DNA from: a virus | Lineage: Duplodnaviria > Caudoviricetes | Length of the DNA stretch: 25,087 nt | Reading direction: 5' to 3' (one strand) | Virus record (IMG/VR): IMGVR_UViG_3300037761_000253 | Span: 1 to 25,087 of that record | In this document: positions 12,818 through 24,837 of the stretch, one piece after another | Layout of the letters: every line of letters starts with the position of its first letter | Position numbering within the stretch: the stretch's first letter is position 1 | Translations under genes and position numbers: made by a program | Notes under the pieces: generated by a model | Told to the model about the DNA's origin: nothing | What the model saw: the letters and a program-made list of their open reading frames with translations, nothing else | Databases searched by the model: none

Positions 12818-12984
12818 GGCTGCCGGTGAGGCAGTGCGCTGGCCGCGCAGCCTTCAGTGTGGCAGGCGCGTCAACTGATCGGGGGTCGGAACGCGGGGCG
12901 AGCGGTGGCCGGCGGACCCGACTCGTCGGCCGTCCAAGTCCGACCCCGTATCCGACCCGCCAACCACCGCGTTGACCTGCACGT

Positions 12985-14745
12985 TCACTGCGTTGCTATG
13001 GCCTGCACCTCCCACGTCTCCGCTGGCAGGATCCGCCACGTCTGGGTGTCGGCGCAGCGCTCCACTTCCGGGCCGAGCGCGCGGGCCGCGTCCAGGACTT
13101 GCTTCTCCGTGAGCCCGGTCGCGGCCTCCAGTTCGCGGCGCGTGCAGTTGCCGTACTTCACCAAAGCAGACCGCACCTTATCCTGATTCGTTCCACCGTT
13201 GGCGGGCAGGACCAGCCGCTTCCCCACCGGCGCCTTCACCGTATCCGCGCCGATCCGCGCGACCTCCGCCGTGAACTCGTCCTTCGTCAACCACATGCCC
13301 TTGTACGGGGCCGGCTGCTGGTGGTCCGGGGACTGGAGGAGGAACTTTCCGGGCGCGTCGAGGTCGCCGGGCTCCCATCCGGGGGTGGTGCCGAAGATGA
13401 ACCGGCGGTGATCCCGGTCCGCCATCCGCGTGCTGATGCGGACGCTGTAGTTGCCGCGGGCATCCGTGGTCCCGCCGAAGACTTTCCGCGACGGCTGCTG
13501 CGTCGCGGCGATCAGGTGAATGCCCGCGAACCGGGCCAAAGCGAGCAGCGATTCCAGCTTCTTCGACGCCGGATCCTTCTTCCACTCACCCACGTCGGCC
13601 TGCCGAACCAGCTCGCCCAGCTCGTCGAACACCGCCCACAGCGCAGGCCGACCGTGCTTGACCGGGTCCCACTCCTGGTCACCGGCCTGCGCGAGGATCT
13701 CCCCGCGCTCCTGCAACTCGACCTTCAGCCAGTCGAGGAAGGCGTGCGCCTGCTCCGGGGTCTGCGCCAGGTCTTGCAGGATCGGCAGCATCGGCGTCAT
13801 CTCCGGCGCCCCCGGTTTGAGGTCGACGCCGTAGACCACGATGTCGGGCCGGTCCGCGAGCTGGAGGACGATGGACCGGACCAGGGTGGACTTCCCGAAC
13901 TTCGATGAACCGGCGACGAGGGCGTGGGCGTAGGCCAGTTCAACTTGGACCGGGTTCAGGAACCGGTCCACGCCGAGCGTGATCGGGTCGGTGAACCGGG
14001 CCGCGGTCTGCCGGGCGTATGGGACCACGGCTCCGAGGGGGTCGCCGTCGATGAACCGGGCGATGAGCTGGTTCGTGAGCGCCCCGTCTTCCAGCATGAA
14101 CTCCCCGGCCACACCCATCCCAGAGGCCACCTTGGACCAGGCGGACTTGAGCTTGTTGCGGTCCAGGTTCACGGGCAGGTCCAGGACTGCGGTCCAACCG
14201 GTTCTGGTCCGTTCCACGGTGCAGCCCGGCAGTTCGGCGGCGAACAGTTCGTGGACCACGGTCCGCAGCCGTGTTTCTTCCACGGTCCGGCCGGTCAGGT
14301 TCGGTCCGGACTGAACCGGCTCGGGCGCGGTCTTCTGAACCAGGGCATGGTGGGCCATCTGCTGCCGGATAAGCGCGGTGTTCAGCTTCACCGACTCGTG
14401 GTCCAGTTTGACCTGGTCGTGGCGGGCGTCGTGCCGGTGCTTGACCATCGCCCCGAACACGGCGGCCGCGCTGATGACGTACCCGTACAGGGCGGCGAAC
14501 CCGCCGACCGTGCTGGTGAGCCACGCCTGCGTGGAGACGCCGGCGAGAGCGAGGCTGCCCCAGGCGAGCGAGGCTGGCCACTTCTTCGCGAAGGACACGA
14601 ACGACAGCTTCCCTGCCGCAAGGGCGGTGCCGAACTCGATGGCGGCTGCGGTGGTGCCGTAGACGCCGTCGGCGGTCAGGGCTGCTGCGGAGACGATGCT
14701 GGGGACGGTGATGGCGGTGATGATGTCGACGCGGTCGATCTTCAC
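12985..14745 (-). CDS. FtsK/SpoIIIE-family DNA translocase, TraB-like (Streptomyces dsDNA conjugation)
   Basis: N-terminal TM segments; HALVAGSSKFGKST Walker A; GVDLKPG; AVFDELGEL Walker B; ARFAGIHLIAATQQP; C-terminal wHTH (CTRRELEAATGLTEKQVLDA). Confidence 0.85.
   Translation of the reverse strand: MKIDRVDIITAITVPSIVSAAALTADGVYGTTAAAIEFGTALAAGKLSFVSFAKKWPASLAWGSLALAGVSTQAWLTSTVGGFAALYGYVISAAAVFGAMVKHRHDARHDQVKLDHESVKLNTALIRQQMAHHALVQKTAPEPVQSGPNLTGRTVEETRLRTVVHELFAAELPGCTVERTRTGWTAVLDLPVNLDRNKLKSAWSKVASGMGVAGEFMLEDGALTNQLIARFIDGDPLGAVVPYARQTAARFTDPITLGVDRFLNPVQVELAYAHALVAGSSKFGKSTLVRSIVLQLADRPDIVVYGVDLKPGAPEMTPMLPILQDLAQTPEQAHAFLDWLKVELQERGEILAQAGDQEWDPVKHGRPALWAVFDELGELVRQADVGEWKKDPASKKLESLLALARFAGIHLIAATQQPSRKVFGGTTDARGNYSVRISTRMADRDHRRFIFGTTPGWEPGDLDAPGKFLLQSPDHQQPAPYKGMWLTKDEFTAEVARIGADTVKAPVGKRLVLPANGGTNQDKVRSALVKYGNCTRRELEAATGLTEKQVLDAARALGPEVERCADTQTWRILPAETWEVQAIATQ
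13851..14405. repeat. Dispersed array of YGRACC/GGTYCR hexamers inside the TraB-like gene
   Basis: About 24 copies counted by eye in both orientations, e.g. 14160, 14166, 14178, 14191, 14206, 14284, 14298, 14303, 14312. Confidence 0.75.
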
Positions 14746-14808
14746 GGTGTGGGCTCCGCAGAGACAGGCGAACCCCCGCGTGTAGCGGGGGCCGGGGCGG
14801 CCGGACGG

Positions 14809-15690
14809 TCAGCGGTACTGGTTCAGGAGCGCCTGGGCGGCAGTGAGACGCCGGTACGCGGTGGACTCGGGGATGCCGAGGATCTTGGCTGCCGTCGGCT
14901 TGGTGATGTGCTCGCCGAGCTTGAGACGACGAAGGAGTTCGTTGACCTGGTCGTCGATCTGAACCGGCTGATCCGGCCGGTTCACCGCGGCCTGGACCGG
15001 CTGAACCGGGGCCGGTTCAGGGATGGCCTCGATCTGGTTCACCGCCTGGTCAGGAGGCTTAACCAGCGTGGACTCAGGGCGGTCCGGTGTGCGGTCCACG
15101 GTGACCTGCGGCCGGTCCGGCGCTTGGCCGAGTTCGGCCTTCACCTGGTCCACGCCCGCCATGATGAACATCAGCGCCTCGGTGTGGAACGCCTTCTCCA
15201 GCTCGCCCCCGTACCCGGCGTTGCGGGCGCGCTTGACGTAGTCGGGGAACGCGTTGGAGAACGCCGCCTTGAACCCGATCGGGAACAGCGCGAACACCGC
15301 GCCCGCAACGAACCCGTTCACGGTGGCCCCGAAGAGGATCAGGCCGTGGGCGAAGTTCGCGGCGACCGACACGGCGAACATACCTTGCATCCGCTTGTGG
15401 GCTTCGATCGCCCGGTGTGGTGACTGCTGGTTTTTGATGACGACGATCGCGGACTGGAACCACACGACGTCGATGAGCGCGAACACGGCCCACGCGGCCC
15501 AGCCGGGCATGTGGAAGTGCCGGCCGAGGTCGTAGAGGGACCAGCCGGAGGCGAAGGCTACGGCGACGGCGAGGACGGGGACGGTGCCGAGGATGGCGGT
15601 GTCGAGGGCGCCGCGTTTGCGGGCGGTGCTCTTGTCGTGCTTGGCGTCGATGACTGCGGTGGCGCGGGCGTAGAGGTCGTCGCGGTTCAT
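14809..15690 (-). CDS. Spd-like (DUF2637-type) membrane protein with C-terminal HTH
   Basis: About four TM helices (ASGWSLYDLG..WAVFALIDVVW..SVAANFAHG), a Pro/Gln-rich linker and TKPTAAKILGIPESTAYRRL HTH; directly upstream of the TraB-like gene. Confidence 0.72.
   Translation of the reverse strand: MNRDDLYARATAVIDAKHDKSTARKRGALDTAILGTVPVLAVAVAFASGWSLYDLGRHFHMPGWAAWAVFALIDVVWFQSAIVVIKNQQSPHRAIEAHKRMQGMFAVSVAANFAHGLILFGATVNGFVAGAVFALFPIGFKAAFSNAFPDYVKRARNAGYGGELEKAFHTEALMFIMAGVDQVKAELGQAPDRPQVTVDRTPDRPESTLVKPPDQAVNQIEAIPEPAPVQPVQAAVNRPDQPVQIDDQVNELLRRLKLGEHITKPTAAKILGIPESTAYRRLTAAQALLNQYR
14960..15152. repeat. Second YGRACC/GGTYCR array in the linker of the Spd-like gene
   Basis: Ten copies: 14960, 14979, 14993, 15002, 15014, 15036, 15081, 15093, 15114, 15147. 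Confidence 0.72.
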
Positions 15691-15705
15691 TTCGAGGCTC
15701 CGGGG

Positions 15706-15954
15706 TTAGTGGCGGGCTCGGGCGGTGCGGGGGCGGTGGGTGCGGATTTGGTGGGCGATGTAGCAGGCGCCGGCGGTGAGGAGCGCGGCCTCGGGCTGGT
15801 GGGCGGCGGCCTCGGCGATGCCGGTGACGATGGCGAGGACCATTCCGGCGGCGAGTTGCGCGATGGTGTTGGCGGTTTCGGGGTACATGGCGGCGAGGAT
15901 GAGGAGGGTGGCGGTGAGGAGGGTGCGGAGCAGGTGGTTGGGGCGGGATCGCAT
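15706..15954 (-). CDS. Small membrane protein (Spd-like accessory)
   Basis: GGGAG RBS; LLTATLLILAAMY and LAAGMVLAIVTGI hydrophobic segments. Confidence 0.65.
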   Translation of the reverse strand: MRSRPNHLLRTLLTATLLILAAMYPETANTIAQLAAGMVLAIVTGIAEAAAHQPEAALLTAGACYIAHQIRTHRPRTARARH

Positions 15955-16034
15955 CGGGGTCTCCCAGAGCGGGCGGGGTGGGCTGGCGCGGTTCTCCTCA
16001 CCGCCCGTGCGAGACGGGCGGATCGGGCAGCCGG

Positions 16035-16220
16035 TCAGCGGCGGCAGTCGAGTGTTTCCAGTTCGGTGTTCATCTGCTCGTGGAGCTTGTTGGCGAGGTC
16101 GCGTTGCTGCGGGGTGGACATGGGGTCGTCTTCGATCTGGCGGGCGAGGGTGGCGGCTGCGGTTACGGAGCCTTGGAGCTGTTCGGTGGTGCGGGTGTCG
16201 CGGCACATGGGGTGCTCCAT
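16035..16220 (-). CDS. Small helical hypothetical protein
   Basis: ORF track; flanked by hairpins at 16001-16021 and 16231-16264; may start at ATG 16208. Confidence 0.55.
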   Translation of the reverse strand: MEHPMCRDTRTTEQLQGSVTAAATLARQIEDDPMSTPQQRDLANKLHEQMNTELETLDCRR

Positions 16221-16275
16221 CGAAGGTGGGGCCGCGCCCCGGTTGGGGGTTTCCGGGGCGCGGCGGTGTGTGGGG

Positions 16276-16434
16276 TCAGTGGTCTCCGCTGGGGAGGACG
16301 CCTTGGCGGGTGCCGGGTCCGCCTTGTTGCTGCTTCGCCTTGGTGGCGGCTTGCGCGGCGGCGAGGTCTTGTGCGGCGCGGCGCAGCAGCTCGGCGGCGT
16401 TGGCTTGGGGGTCGGTGTCGATGGGCTCGCTCAC
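16276..16434 (-). CDS. Hypothetical protein, 52 aa (not in ORF track)
   Basis: GGAGG RBS, GTGA coupling; VSEPIDTDPQANAAELLRRAAQDLAAAQ... Confidence 0.5.
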   Translation of the reverse strand: MSEPIDTDPQANAAELLRRAAQDLAAAQAATKAKQQQGGPGTRQGVLPSGDH

Positions 16435-16577: not shown

Positions 16578-16611
16578 GCGGTCATCTCCTGGTCAGATCA
16601 GGTGGATGGCT

Positions 16612-16645
16612 GGCCAGGCGGGAAGGTGAGATTTCCCGCCTGGCC
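16612..16645. promoter_or_regulatory. Perfect 13-bp hairpin at the 5' end of the tra operon
   Basis: GGCCAGGCGGGAA / TTCCCGCCTGGCC. Confidence 0.55.
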
Positions 16646-16674
16646 GTTTCTGTTGGTGCCGTTCCAGAGTGCAC

Positions 16675-19709: not shown

Positions 19710-19870
19710 GCGGTCTCCCGCTGCTGGTTGATGGTGTCGGCGGCGTCGAGGGCGGCCCGGTCGGTGCAGGGGCAGCCGGGTGCCGGCGGTACGAAGGGGC
19801 GCATCCGGTAGCCGAGGGTGAAGCCGACGGATGCGGTGAGGGTGGCGGTGAGGATCAGGTACGCGATCAC
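19706..19870 (-). CDS. Small membrane protein, 54 aa
   Basis: VIAYLILTATLTASVGFTLGY; coupled at both ends. Confidence 0.5.
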   Translation of the reverse strand: MIAYLILTATLTASVGFTLGYRMRPFVPPAPGCPCTDRAALDAADTINQQRETA

Positions 19871-20244
19871 GAGCGGGCCTTCCTCGCGGTGCGGCGGCGT
19901 CCGCTGTACCAGGGCAGTGCGAGCCCGTCATTGACGGCACGGGGCAGCAGGTGAAGATGCAAATGGAAGACGGACTGTGTGGCGTGCACGCCTCGGCTGG
20001 TGATGAGGTTGGCGTGCACCAGGTCCAGCTCGCGGCATAGCTGCGCCGCCCGCCGCGCAGTCGCTCCGGTTACGTCGGGGTCGTCTGTGAAGTCGATGAC
20101 GTGGGTCTTGGGGATGACCAGGGTGTGGCCCTCGGTCACGGGGTTCAGCGGGACGATGGCGATGGTGTCGGACCACTCGTGTACGAACGTGGCGGGTGCG
20201 CGTCCGGTGTTGATCTCGCAGAAGGGGCAGGGCGGTTCGGTCAT
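19867..20244 (-). CDS. HIT (histidine triad) family nucleotide hydrolase
   Basis: CPFC, PVTEGHTLVIPK, QSVFHLHLHLLPR triad. Confidence 0.92.
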   Translation of the reverse strand: MTEPPCPFCEINTGRAPATFVHEWSDTIAIVPLNPVTEGHTLVIPKTHVIDFTDDPDVTGATARRAAQLCRELDLVHANLITSRGVHATQSVFHLHLHLLPRAVNDGLALPWYSGRRRTARKARS

Positions 20245-20808: not shown

Positions 20809-21204
20809 CTATGCGGTTGCGCTTGGCGGTACGACGGGGACGTCTCGCCTGCGGGCGGCCTTCCGCTCTTCCCTCCTTTGCAGGACGGTGGCGGCGTGCT
20901 TGGCGCGCAGCACGCGGACGAACCACGCGTTGGTGCGGTACCGGATCGCGAGCGGGTGGGTCTTCTCGCCCCGGTCGACGAACCCCATATGGGTGTTGCA
21001 CTTGCCGCAGAGCAGCCCGCGCACGGCGAAGAACCCGTACTCCTGCGCGTGATCGATGAACAGCTTGCCGACGGGAGTCTCCTCCGGCTTCTTGCCGCAG
21101 AGTTCGCAGCGCCCCTTGGCGTGCTCCCACAGGTCGTCGTAGTCGTCACAGGTGAGGCGGTAGCCGAGGTGCTGGCTGGACGCGTGGCGACAGTTGGTCA
21201 TCAT
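20809..21204 (-). CDS. Endonuclease VII-like (His-Me finger) nuclease
   Basis: YRLTCDDYDDLW...GRCELCG...LFIDHA...VRGLLCGKCNTHMG, the Endo VII signature; GGAG RBS. Confidence 0.85.
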   Translation of the reverse strand: MMTNCRHASSQHLGYRLTCDDYDDLWEHAKGRCELCGKKPEETPVGKLFIDHAQEYGFFAVRGLLCGKCNTHMGFVDRGEKTHPLAIRYRTNAWFVRVLRAKHAATVLQRREERKAARRRDVPVVPPSATA

Positions 21205-21219
21205 TTCTCCGCAGCTCAA

Positions 21220-21280
21220 AGGTGGATACCCACCCAAGTATGTCACCCCTGTCGACGGGTGGCTATCCACCTGAGAGAAT
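21220..21280. promoter_or_regulatory. Divergent promoter with twin palindromic operators
   Basis: AGGTGGATACCCACCC (21220-21235) and GGGTGGCTATCCACCT (21257-21272); each is GGTGG-N4-CCACC and they are mutually inverted. -10-like GAGAAT at 21275-21280 and CATACT on the minus strand at 21237-21242. Confidence 0.72.
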
Positions 21281-21286
21281 CGGCGC

Positions 21287-21484
21287 ATGGCAAACATGCA
21301 CAAGCACAAGCAGCGGATGCTGCGCGGCGTCGACGACGAGACGTGGGCCGAGCTTGGCGCTGCCGCAGACCTCTCAAGGGCGGACCGGTCGGCGATCATC
21401 CGCGAACTCATCGCCTGGTACCTCCGTCGCCCGAGTGCGAAATTGCCTGAGCGCCCGCCTGCGAGGCGATCCGGCCCCGAATGA
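21287..21484 (+). CDS. Ribbon-helix-helix repressor, probably leaderless
   Basis: KQRMLRGVDDETWAELGAAADLSRADRSAIIRELIAWYL; visibly similar to 10463..10690. Confidence 0.75.
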   Translation: MANMHKHKQRMLRGVDDETWAELGAAADLSRADRSAIIRELIAWYLRRPSAKLPERPPARRSGPE

Positions 21485-21538
21485 GGACGGCTTCGCATTC
21501 GCCCTCCAAACCCGTCACAGCGCCGCACAGCCCACTTC

Positions 21539-21571
21539 CCGGCCCCTCGCAGGTGTTCCGCGAGGGGCCGG
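21539..21571. terminator. Hairpin between convergent units
   Basis: CCGGCCCCTCGC / GCGAGGGGCCGG. Confidence 0.55.
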
Positions 21572-21707
21572 ACTGCGTCCCGAGGCGCTCCTGCGGCCGC
21601 TGAGCGGGCTGCACGCCACCAACACGCGGGAGGGAACGGCTGCCCCTGATGCCCGCACACCGCTGCCGTGACGGCGACCACGGCAGCGACGAACACGAGA
21701 ACGACGA

Positions 21708-21866
21708 TCACGAGGACGGCTCCCGCGGTACGAGGCCGAGGACGACCGCGCTCGTGCACGGCCACGGGATGTGGCAGCGGTAGCACCACACCGCGCGGAG
21801 CTTGCCGTTGGTGATGACGTCCATGGGCTCGTGGCCGAAGTCCTCGACGGCGGTCTGCTCGGCCAT
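21708..21866 (-). CDS. Small Zn-finger-like protein, 52 aa
   Basis: AGGAGG RBS; GHEP...WCYRCHIPWPCTS. Confidence 0.6.
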   Translation of the reverse strand: MAEQTAVEDFGHEPMDVITNGKLRAVWCYRCHIPWPCTSAVVLGLVPREPSS

Positions 21867-23564: not shown

Positions 23565-24386
23565 TCAGGTGAAGCAGTAGCCGGAGTCACAGGCACCATC
23601 GGCTTCGTCGAACATCGGCAGCAGGTCCACGCCGTCCGGGATGGCCTGCCGCAACGGCTTGTTGAACCGGGTCAGATAGACGTGGTCCTTGCCCAGCTCG
23701 TCACGGCGCTCGTTCAGCAACTCTTCGAGCTGGCACGACTTCTCGAACAGCTCCGGCTCGTCGCGGCGTTGGTCGTGCCATGTCTCCGGCCGGTGGAACG
23801 GGCAGAACCAGCACGACGACTTCGGCGGTACGGGCAGCCCGGCCTCGCGGATGACCCGCGCACAGTCGGTACGCCTCAGCCCGAGGTCGAGGAGCGGGTA
23901 CGTGATGACCTCGTGCGGCTCGGTGCGCCGGTTGTTCGCGCGCTGGATCTCGTCGACCGAGATACCGATGCCGATCGTTGCCGGGGCCGCTGCGGTTGCG
24001 CCGCGCCGCTTCAGTTCCTTCCCGATCACCTTGATTTTGAAGTCGGCGGTGCACGACCGCTGGCCGGGCGCCCCGTTGGACATGCGGACCGGTATGGGCA
24101 GCGAGCGGGAGCCCTCGCGGGTGAGGCGGCCCAACAGTGTCTCGACGCTGCCGTCGCGCTTCACCCGGTCCAGGACGGTCAGCTCTATGCCGTGTTCGGC
24201 AGCGAACGGGCGGGCGTACTCCTCGACGTATCGGAGGGTGGCCGGGTTCTCGCTGTCGTCGCCGACGTTGGCCATGAGGAACAGGCGGAAGTCGATGCGC
24301 TCCTGTGCGGCGAGGACGAGGAGGGCGGTGGACTGGACGCCCCCCCCGTAGCTGATGGAGCGGATTTCTGGCGGTCGGTCGGTCAT
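23565..24386 (-). CDS. PAPS-reductase-like PP-loop (adenine nucleotide alpha hydrolase) protein, 273 aa
   Basis: ISYGGGVQST PP-loop, ANVGDDSENP, RSCTADFKI, IGISVDE, YPL, PPKSSCWFCPFH, terminal CDSGYCF. Confidence 0.82.
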   Translation of the reverse strand: MTDRPPEIRSISYGGGVQSTALLVLAAQERIDFRLFLMANVGDDSENPATLRYVEEYARPFAAEHGIELTVLDRVKRDGSVETLLGRLTREGSRSLPIPVRMSNGAPGQRSCTADFKIKVIGKELKRRGATAAAPATIGIGISVDEIQRANNRRTEPHEVITYPLLDLGLRRTDCARVIREAGLPVPPKSSCWFCPFHRPETWHDQRRDEPELFEKSCQLEELLNERRDELGKDHVYLTRFNKPLRQAIPDGVDLLPMFDEADGACDSGYCFT

Positions 24387-24426
24387 GTGCTGCTCCTGGG
24401 TGTGTGCGGGCCGGACGGAACCGGAT

Positions 24427-24837
24427 TCAGGCGGGGGTGGCGGCGGGCTGGTTGACGAGGCAGACCAAGACCGCCGCGTGACAGTGGTCCGGCTCGCCGT
24501 CGGCAGGCAGCGGACACCAGCAGGTGAGATCACGGCCGTGGAGGAGGGCGCGGAACAGGCGCAGGGTGTCGGCCTGCTCGGGCAGGTTGATCCAGACGCG
24601 GTAAGCCTCAGTGGCGTACCGGCGGGCCTCAAAGTGGTTGTGGAAGGTGCCGACGCTGCCGCCGTTGTCGCCGAACTGGACGGCCCAGCCGTTGTTCTGG
24701 CGGACGAGGCGGTACGGGTTGCCGAAGCGGGTGGGGCGTCCGACGTAGGTCGAGTTGGGGGGTGTGCGGTAGCCGCGGGTTCGTCGGCGTTGGATGCGAC
24801 GGGGCTGCTGGTCGTGGGTTTGGGGTGTGGTGGTCAT
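24427..24837 (-). CDS. DUF4326-like protein
   Basis: RIQRRRTRG..YVGRPTRFGNPY...LHGRDLTCWCP...CHAAVL. Confidence 0.82.
   Translation of the reverse strand: MTTTPQTHDQQPRRIQRRRTRGYRTPPNSTYVGRPTRFGNPYRLVRQNNGWAVQFGDNGGSVGTFHNHFEARRYATEAYRVWINLPEQADTLRLFRALLHGRDLTCWCPLPADGEPDHCHAAVLVCLVNQPAATPA

Follow-up and report, generated by a model that had tools for sequence, protein, structure and literature searches.

We have found that a hexamer, YGRACC, is concentrated in two arrays written into adjacent spd-like and traB-like coding sequences of a phage, that these arrays are under selection at the DNA level, and that they are unique within the element. Comparison with related loci indicates that the helix-turn-helix (HTH) domain at the C-terminus of the Spd protein very probably reads them, and we lean towards an explanation in which this membrane protein would use its cognate array in coding DNA to hold its own element beside TraB. 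The window, by which we mean the whole stretch of DNA analysed (25,087 nt, IMG/VR record IMGVR_UViG_3300037761_000253), is a virus record with terminase and portal genes and is from a Streptomyces-type temperate phage; its named relatives are nearly all from Streptomyces, and the closest complete relative carries a tyrosine integrase. The features discussed below are as follows.

15706..15954, minus strand: small hydrophobic ORF of 82 aa immediately upstream of the spd-like gene (translation)
14809..15690, minus strand: SpdB-like membrane protein, 293 aa, with hydrophobic helices, a disordered linker and a C-terminal HTH
14960..15152, unstranded: YGRACC array of 10 copies, codons 180-242, in the spd-like linker; extended consensus approximately SYGRACYGG
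15002..15019, unstranded: inverted pair TGAACCGG-NN-CCGGTTCA, coding for PEPAPVQ; candidate strong dimer site, from sequence
14812..14958, minus strand: HTH domain, approximately residues 245-293, the proposed array reader (AlphaFold model and co-variation)
14845-14871, minus strand: Spd recognition helix PESTAYRRL, within the C-terminal HTH
12985..14745, minus strand: TraB-like FtsK/SpoIIIE translocase, 586 aa (PF01580, E=8.8e-14; PHROG 1358)
13851..14405, unstranded: YGRACC array of 24 copies, traB codons 114-297 (exact count and synonymous controls)
13323..13609, unstranded: sparse tail of 5 more YGRACC copies in the ATPase core (exact search)
13075-13107, minus strand: TraB C-terminal wHTH-like helix EKQVLDAARAL (translation)
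12883..12958, unstranded: clt-like locus, proposed TraB site (its word varies along with the wHTH helix)

The spd-like protein, encoded upstream of traB, has hydropathy peaks at residues 28-46, 67-85 and 117-135. It matches DUF2637 at E=5e-4 and 20.4 bits, below the cut-off of 22.8; a relative (P0095) exceeds that cut-off, and relatives carry precomputed annotations to PF27080 (SpdB_N). An AlphaFold model of the protein has a three-helix C-terminal domain (pLDDT ~95) and a linker that is disordered and repetitive; a Foldseek search with this model returned nothing at E<=0.001, and Pfam HTH matches on the relatives are weak. The TraB-like protein has hydrophobic peaks near its N-terminus (6-24 and 83-101), and its Walker A motif is a variant, GSSKFGKS (13888-13911), that is invariant across 37 aligned relatives. 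The 82-aa ORF is by its position a candidate accessory spread protein; the ORF enclosing it gave no Pfam match. We also note a G+C hairpin between spd and traB (14773-14791), a 15-pair hairpin at 16611-16646 upstream of a divergent excisionase-like HTH gene, and phage gene cargo at 23565-24632, 19867-20244 and 20809-21789 (PAPS-reductase-like, HIT-domain and endonuclease VII-like).

YGRACC arrays under DNA-level selection

An exact search of both strands gives 24 copies of YGRACC in the traB region and 10 in the spd region (121 in the window), just as the first-pass annotation had counted by eye. The numbers it had expected by chance, about 2 and fewer than 1, likewise agree with the ~1.9 and 0.65 that follow from a background of 1.62 copies per 480 nt outside the arrays. 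This is the sole YGRACC peak in the window (top 1-kb count 27, runner-up 8), and a complete 59-kb relative (G402) also has one peak (26 per kb, runner-up 9). The dense traB array stops at codon 297, shortly beyond Walker A, and 5 further copies lie at codons 379-473, which refines the earlier remark that copies thin out in the ATPase core.

That annotation had also argued from the presence of both orientations and from the varied peptides encoded that the copies are not a protein repeat, and we find the same: relative to the genes, the traB-region copies comprise 14 forward and 10 reverse and occupy all three codon phases, and the spd-region copies comprise 7 forward and 3 reverse in two phases. 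Enrichment persists against synonymous-codon permutation within each gene, which the annotation had proposed as a check; permuted sequences contain 10.2+-2.4 copies in the traB region (maximum 20 in 5000, observed 24) and 4.8+-1.6 in the spd region (observed 10, P=0.0026), and resampling with the codon usage of the other genes yields 7.4 and 3.9. Of the sites at which the amino-acid sequence allows YGRACC, 24 of 29 in the traB region and 10 of 13 in the spd region carry it, as compared with 7-23% in nine of ten other genes and 4 of 8 sites in the tenth. The motif and the array borders were picked post hoc from these same data, and recurrence of the array in relatives, described below, is the counterweight.

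Background, synonymous controls and the single-peak scan rule out chance or a GC effect as the cause of the arrays, and orientations, phases and permutation rule out a protein repeat or codon bias for the window. A palindromic operator with fixed spacing can be set aside as well, since the spacing varies. There is a partial phasing at 10-11.5 bp, which would put the sites of some linkers on the same face of the helix: it is detected in the spd part (P=0.005) and in 4 of 10 single loci (P<=0.005), and was tested for and found absent in the traB part (P=0.59). The commonest forward-reverse offset in related linkers is 12, at 28 of 70 non-independent pairs.

Co-variation of the DNA word with the Spd recognition helix

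From a set of 76 fetched loci together with the window, removal of partial and duplicate traB genes left 50, and these divide by Spd HTH into types A (32), B (8), C (3) and D (2), with one untyped and four in which the upstream gene is missing. The array in traB codons 100-300 follows this division: 16-27 copies of YGRACC occur in 31 of the 32 A loci and in all four loci with the upstream gene missing (35 of 50 loci, the window counted), and 0-6 copies in 13 of the other 14, the exception being L029 with 11. Within the last 480 nt of the spd gene, YGRACC goes with the helix (P/S)(E/P)STAYRRL, TGAGCY with PATAKRYL or PATAGRRL, CGGACR with DSIRR, CGAACR with SVEATVRR, and TGAGAC with RAT(A/G)GRRL. 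Among 57 loci, linker motif and helix agree at P<0.001 in 50, mostly in-sample; the remainder comprise four with the right top motif at P~0.001, one weak A locus and two similar HTH genes that lack a membrane domain and have no array. Most words were defined on the same loci as were scored, and linker and HTH are adjacent and co-inherited, so that most loci are not independent; we count approximately 8-10 independent helix-motif pairs.

Loci fetched after the motifs had been defined also fit, namely L126-L129 and L174 (TGAGCY) and L177 (TGAGAC). Plasmids of the pSLE1 type carry 19-22 copies of GGCTCA in 1.2 kb, extending into the neighbouring gene; four loci (L119-L122) had been expected to have YGRACC and showed TGAGCC, and the account of them by helix is post hoc. 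Together with L128, the HTHs of the pSLE1-type plasmids are 41-51% identical to the window HTH and 26-36% identical to those of L070 and L049 (for the pSLE1-type HTHs alone, 41-45% to the window and 28-36% to the phage B-type L070 and L049), and they bear the B motif and have the helix start ATA in common with B. Novel helices come with novel words: TGAGAG in L175 and in gp8 of phage Success, GAGACC in L176, TGAAA/TGAGAG in L172-L173, and GCACCC at gp24 of phage VWB, with 28 copies in 800 nt. Nine of ten arrays tested pass synonymous permutation; that of phiC31 gp25 fails (P=0.095) and is explained by a peptide repeat. Arrays extend into the next gene in the case of traB, the pSLE1 neighbour and the DNA downstream of VWB gp24, and they also occur in elements without an adjacent traB, such as Success gp8, which lies near a tyrosine recombinase. 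Of the plasmid DUF2637 genes, three were examined; one lacks an array and another has a weak one.

In related elements any change in the helix is matched by a change in the word, which suggests that the membrane protein grips the DNA of its own element, and we think it very likely, on this comparative evidence, that the C-terminal HTH of Spd is the reader. Of the two candidate readers named in the first-pass annotation, the Spd HTH is thus the likely one and the TraB wHTH, whose helix the array ignores, is not; the test of co-variation that the annotation had suggested succeeds for the Spd HTH, and that the array is a cis-acting feature of the DNA within coding sequence is borne out by the synonymous controls, the recurrence and the co-variation with the Spd HTH.

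Natural exchanges of the HTH point the same way. L056 (=L012) combines an A-clade TraB core with a C-type spd gene and has a small HTH gene between spd and traB that is T5orf172-like, by its likeness to P0035. Eight YGRACC remain at this locus beside 7 CGGACR, and copies have been lost through synonymous changes at codons 153, 184, 194 and 259. Use of permitted sites is 0.50 in L056 and 0.45 in L029, whereas the 30 loci matched to them range over 0.68-0.91. Within motif codons the two have a synonymous divergence of 0.32 and 0.25, versus 0.02-0.18; the lowered synonymous divergence of motif codons is thus largely gone in the swapped loci, with the caveat that no other A cores have diverged as far as these two. 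A first test of conservation within the motif was partly circular, and we relied on the used/permitted and divergence comparisons. In both swapped loci, then, the traB sites have decayed.

The array in traB also follows ancestry of the TraB core (residues 110-500), which falls into three deep clades, A, B+C and D. The eight B-type cassettes have just 0-4 TGAGCY in traB, and five of them retain 5-7 CGGACR; a matched traB array is therefore not obligatory, and the pattern fits either recent replacement of the module or a traB part that can be dispensed with. Across loci any membrane domain may occur with any HTH type, so that the HTH and its linker act as an exchangeable unit. TraB is itself a mosaic, its membrane part (1-110) and wHTH helix types mixing across core clades. 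In six spd genes described as B-type (L070, L049, L032, L033, L047 and L029) and in P0035, a T5orf172/MUG113-like domain is fused between membrane domain and HTH; the Pfam match was shown on P0035, and the others were assigned by translation. Four distant FtsK loci with no annotated spd-HTH neighbour have no comparable array (best words P~1e-4; L080 has 8 TGAGCY).

Several further observations concern membrane-HTH genes elsewhere. The GCACCC array of VWB (L170:17200-18400) runs past gp24, and the N-terminus annotated for gp25 there resembles a wrong-frame extension over the array. A membrane-HTH gene of pRVR1 has GTGGAA/TGGAAC words, and a 34-kb terminase-bearing element has a weak GTATCA set (L180:3200-4100; L123:4400-5500). 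DUF2637 is matched in 201 of 201 genomes sampled, the best matches being one conserved gene ending ELEEDHIA (L089-L118). The notion that every DUF2637 gene has an array is rejected, the best chromosomal DUF2637 gene having none where it was correctly framed (17 of 30 loci were misframed or failed).

A proposed self-addressed membrane tether and other possible roles for the array

We propose that the Spd protein, inserted in the membrane and probably oligomeric, would bind many weak sites in the last part of its own gene and the first part of the gene that follows. This arrangement raises the possibility that the protein captures its own element in cis, possibly during synthesis. In this way the excised phage circle would stay anchored to the membrane or septum beside TraB; TraB would load separately at clt, ~0.9 kb away, and pump DNA, so that two independent address labels would lie within one 2.3-kb stretch. 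We see about an even chance that the array serves chiefly for such tethering, in aid of transfer or spreading. Whether SpdB-like proteins of actinomycete phages and plasmids are, more broadly, a family of sequence-specific, self-addressed tethers, with residues 275, 276 and 279 as the code, HTH and array exchanged as a module and the word written into linker codons and neighbouring genes, is a more tentative suggestion, to which we give a little less than even odds.

Among the nearest known systems is SpdB2 of pSVH1, which is oligomeric and pore-forming, interacts with TraB and is required for spreading; homologues on actinophages (phiC31 and a second phage paper) are cited in the same report, which describes the role of most Spd proteins as unknown (PMC4447253). 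Compared by description, pSVH1 SpdB2 and the window protein are both multi-pass membrane proteins upstream of traB, and relatives of the latter match SpdB_N or DUF2637. They differ in that the window protein has a putative cognate array and none is described in the text on SpdB2, where binding to dsDNA is reported to be non-specific (PMC4447253), a report that speaks against a cognate tether. The SpdA2/sps system of pIJ101 is alike in that a spread protein has its binding sites within the gene that encodes it, where they impose peptide motifs. The sps site, a 12-bp palindrome present in 2-3 copies, is conserved between plasmids, and its ligand is a small protein whose DNA-binding region is N-terminal (PMC4170104); the window has at least 34 hexamers spread across two genes, an HTH at the C-terminus of a membrane-anchored protein, and a word that varies between elements. 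The SRDD/E peptide of SpdA is absent from the 293-aa translation.

In ParB/parS, Noc/NBS and RacA/ram, too, many short sites are read by an HTH protein, which thereby connects the DNA with a structure of the cell. The window differs from these in its integral membrane anchor, in sites overprinted on the gene of the binder, and in that a search limited to AAA_31 found no ParA in five related phage records (two of them complete) and no ParB-family match was found among the 28 window ORFs scanned. The term 'centromere-like', used in the first-pass annotation, is accordingly unproven, there being neither an AAA_31 ParA in those five records nor regular spacing in the traB part. Neither such arrays nor co-variation of HTH and motif are described in the literature searched (full texts, few subscription journals), including passages of PMC9239103 and PMC3218068. 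SpdB2 linkers have reportedly been noted before as amino-acid repeats.

Two other roles would retain the same HTH reader. In the first, which we consider unlikely, the protein blocks or silences transcription of the end of its own gene and of traB, thereby autoregulating a costly translocase, and its membrane domain serves as a sensor or an anchor. Unregulated traB/kilA is harmful, indeed lethal, in pIJ101; the array spans the spd 3' end and the traB 5' half along the direction of transcription, and no GntR-type TraR/KorA was matched among the 28 window ORFs scanned, all of which would suit such a role. Repressors of pIJ101 traB/kilA have been named. The DNA upstream of the operon, the usual place for a repressor, is however nearly siteless (0-1 copies per 200 nt at 15401-16400), and two array-bearing pSLE1-type plasmids have a GntR gene upstream. 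The second role, somewhat less probable still, is stability, in which the membrane anchor retains or partitions excised copies in hyphae or spores independently of TraB. It would be in line with arrays that lack an adjacent traB, such as that of Success gp8, and with SpdA2, which is described as binding within its own gene and affecting stability rather than transfer (PMC4170104). Set against it are the tight linkage of the gene to traB and clt in traB/clt/spd phage loci and the closest complete relative, which has a tyrosine integrase, lacks an AAA_31 ParA and hence needs little partitioning as a prophage.

A reading with no binding function at all, in which the array is a by-product of low-complexity linker expansion or gene conversion and is inherited with the HTH, we regard as very improbable. 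The linkers here are disordered and repetitive, and a peptide repeat does explain phiC31 gp25. Expansion of this kind nevertheless fits poorly with copies in both orientations and several codon phases, with sites in the folded TraB region, with the use of 24 of 29 permitted sites, with decay after HTH swap, and with occurrence of one and the same motif alongside HTH scaffolds and membrane domains that differ from each other.

Arrays of cognate sites, if that is what they are, would explain how an element chooses its own DNA among co-resident plasmids, integrated elements and prophages, and the binding word would be predictable from protein sequence, with at least 8 helix-motif pairs as a natural panel; gp24 of VWB (GCACCC) and gp8 of Success (TGAGAG), both cultured phages, and plasmid pSLE1 (TGAGCC) are open to direct testing. 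Selection at the DNA level here shapes a folded ATPase gene, and the TraB-clt-Spd module sits on an integrating phage. Should the tether reading be true, the odd repetitive linkers of Spd proteins would owe their form to the DNA sites imprinted on them, and tether and TraB together would let temperate phages move their genomes through hyphae without particles.

A separate repeat that varies with the TraB wHTH

At each locus displayed, a small repeat with direct and inverted copies follows closely on the end of traB. In the window it consists of two copies of GGGTCGGA on the traB strand together with a degenerate and an inverted one. In 47 loci (3 of the 50 lack downstream DNA), with the wHTH typed by helix class and the words defined on these same loci, QVLDA goes with GGGTCGG in 18 of 18, QVRDAAG with GGGTGRA in 5 of 5, QVLKA with GGGTCCC in 15 of 20 and QVLRALQ with GGGTCTC in 2 of 2; there are two other helices. 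An FtsK-type TraB with short downstream repeats that vary with the wHTH helix is known from TraB/clt plasmids of Streptomyces and is what we see at 12883-12958 (PMC3583192, PMC4170104). The window differs from those plasmids in that the YGRACC array is a second system ignoring the wHTH, and in its host, an integrating phage with terminase and portal.

Arrays of 19-27 YGRACC copies accompany each common wHTH helix, the three being represented by 14, 5 and 14 loci, and are missing (0-3 copies) in 9 loci that share those helices and have another Spd HTH. The array as a TRS read by the TraB wHTH is thus strongly disfavoured, the array being independent of wHTH type and the clt word tracking it. 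In favour of such a reader are the position of most copies inside traB and the cited finding that helix 3 of its wHTH lets TraB recognise short repeats (PMC3583192); we consider it scarcely credible.

Two further words flank the clt-like locus with any wHTH type, GCWGGTCA right after the traB stop (12973-12980) in 34 of 47 loci and TGCCACAC further past clt (12857-12864) in 22 of 47; these are possibly a host-factor site or a promoter element.
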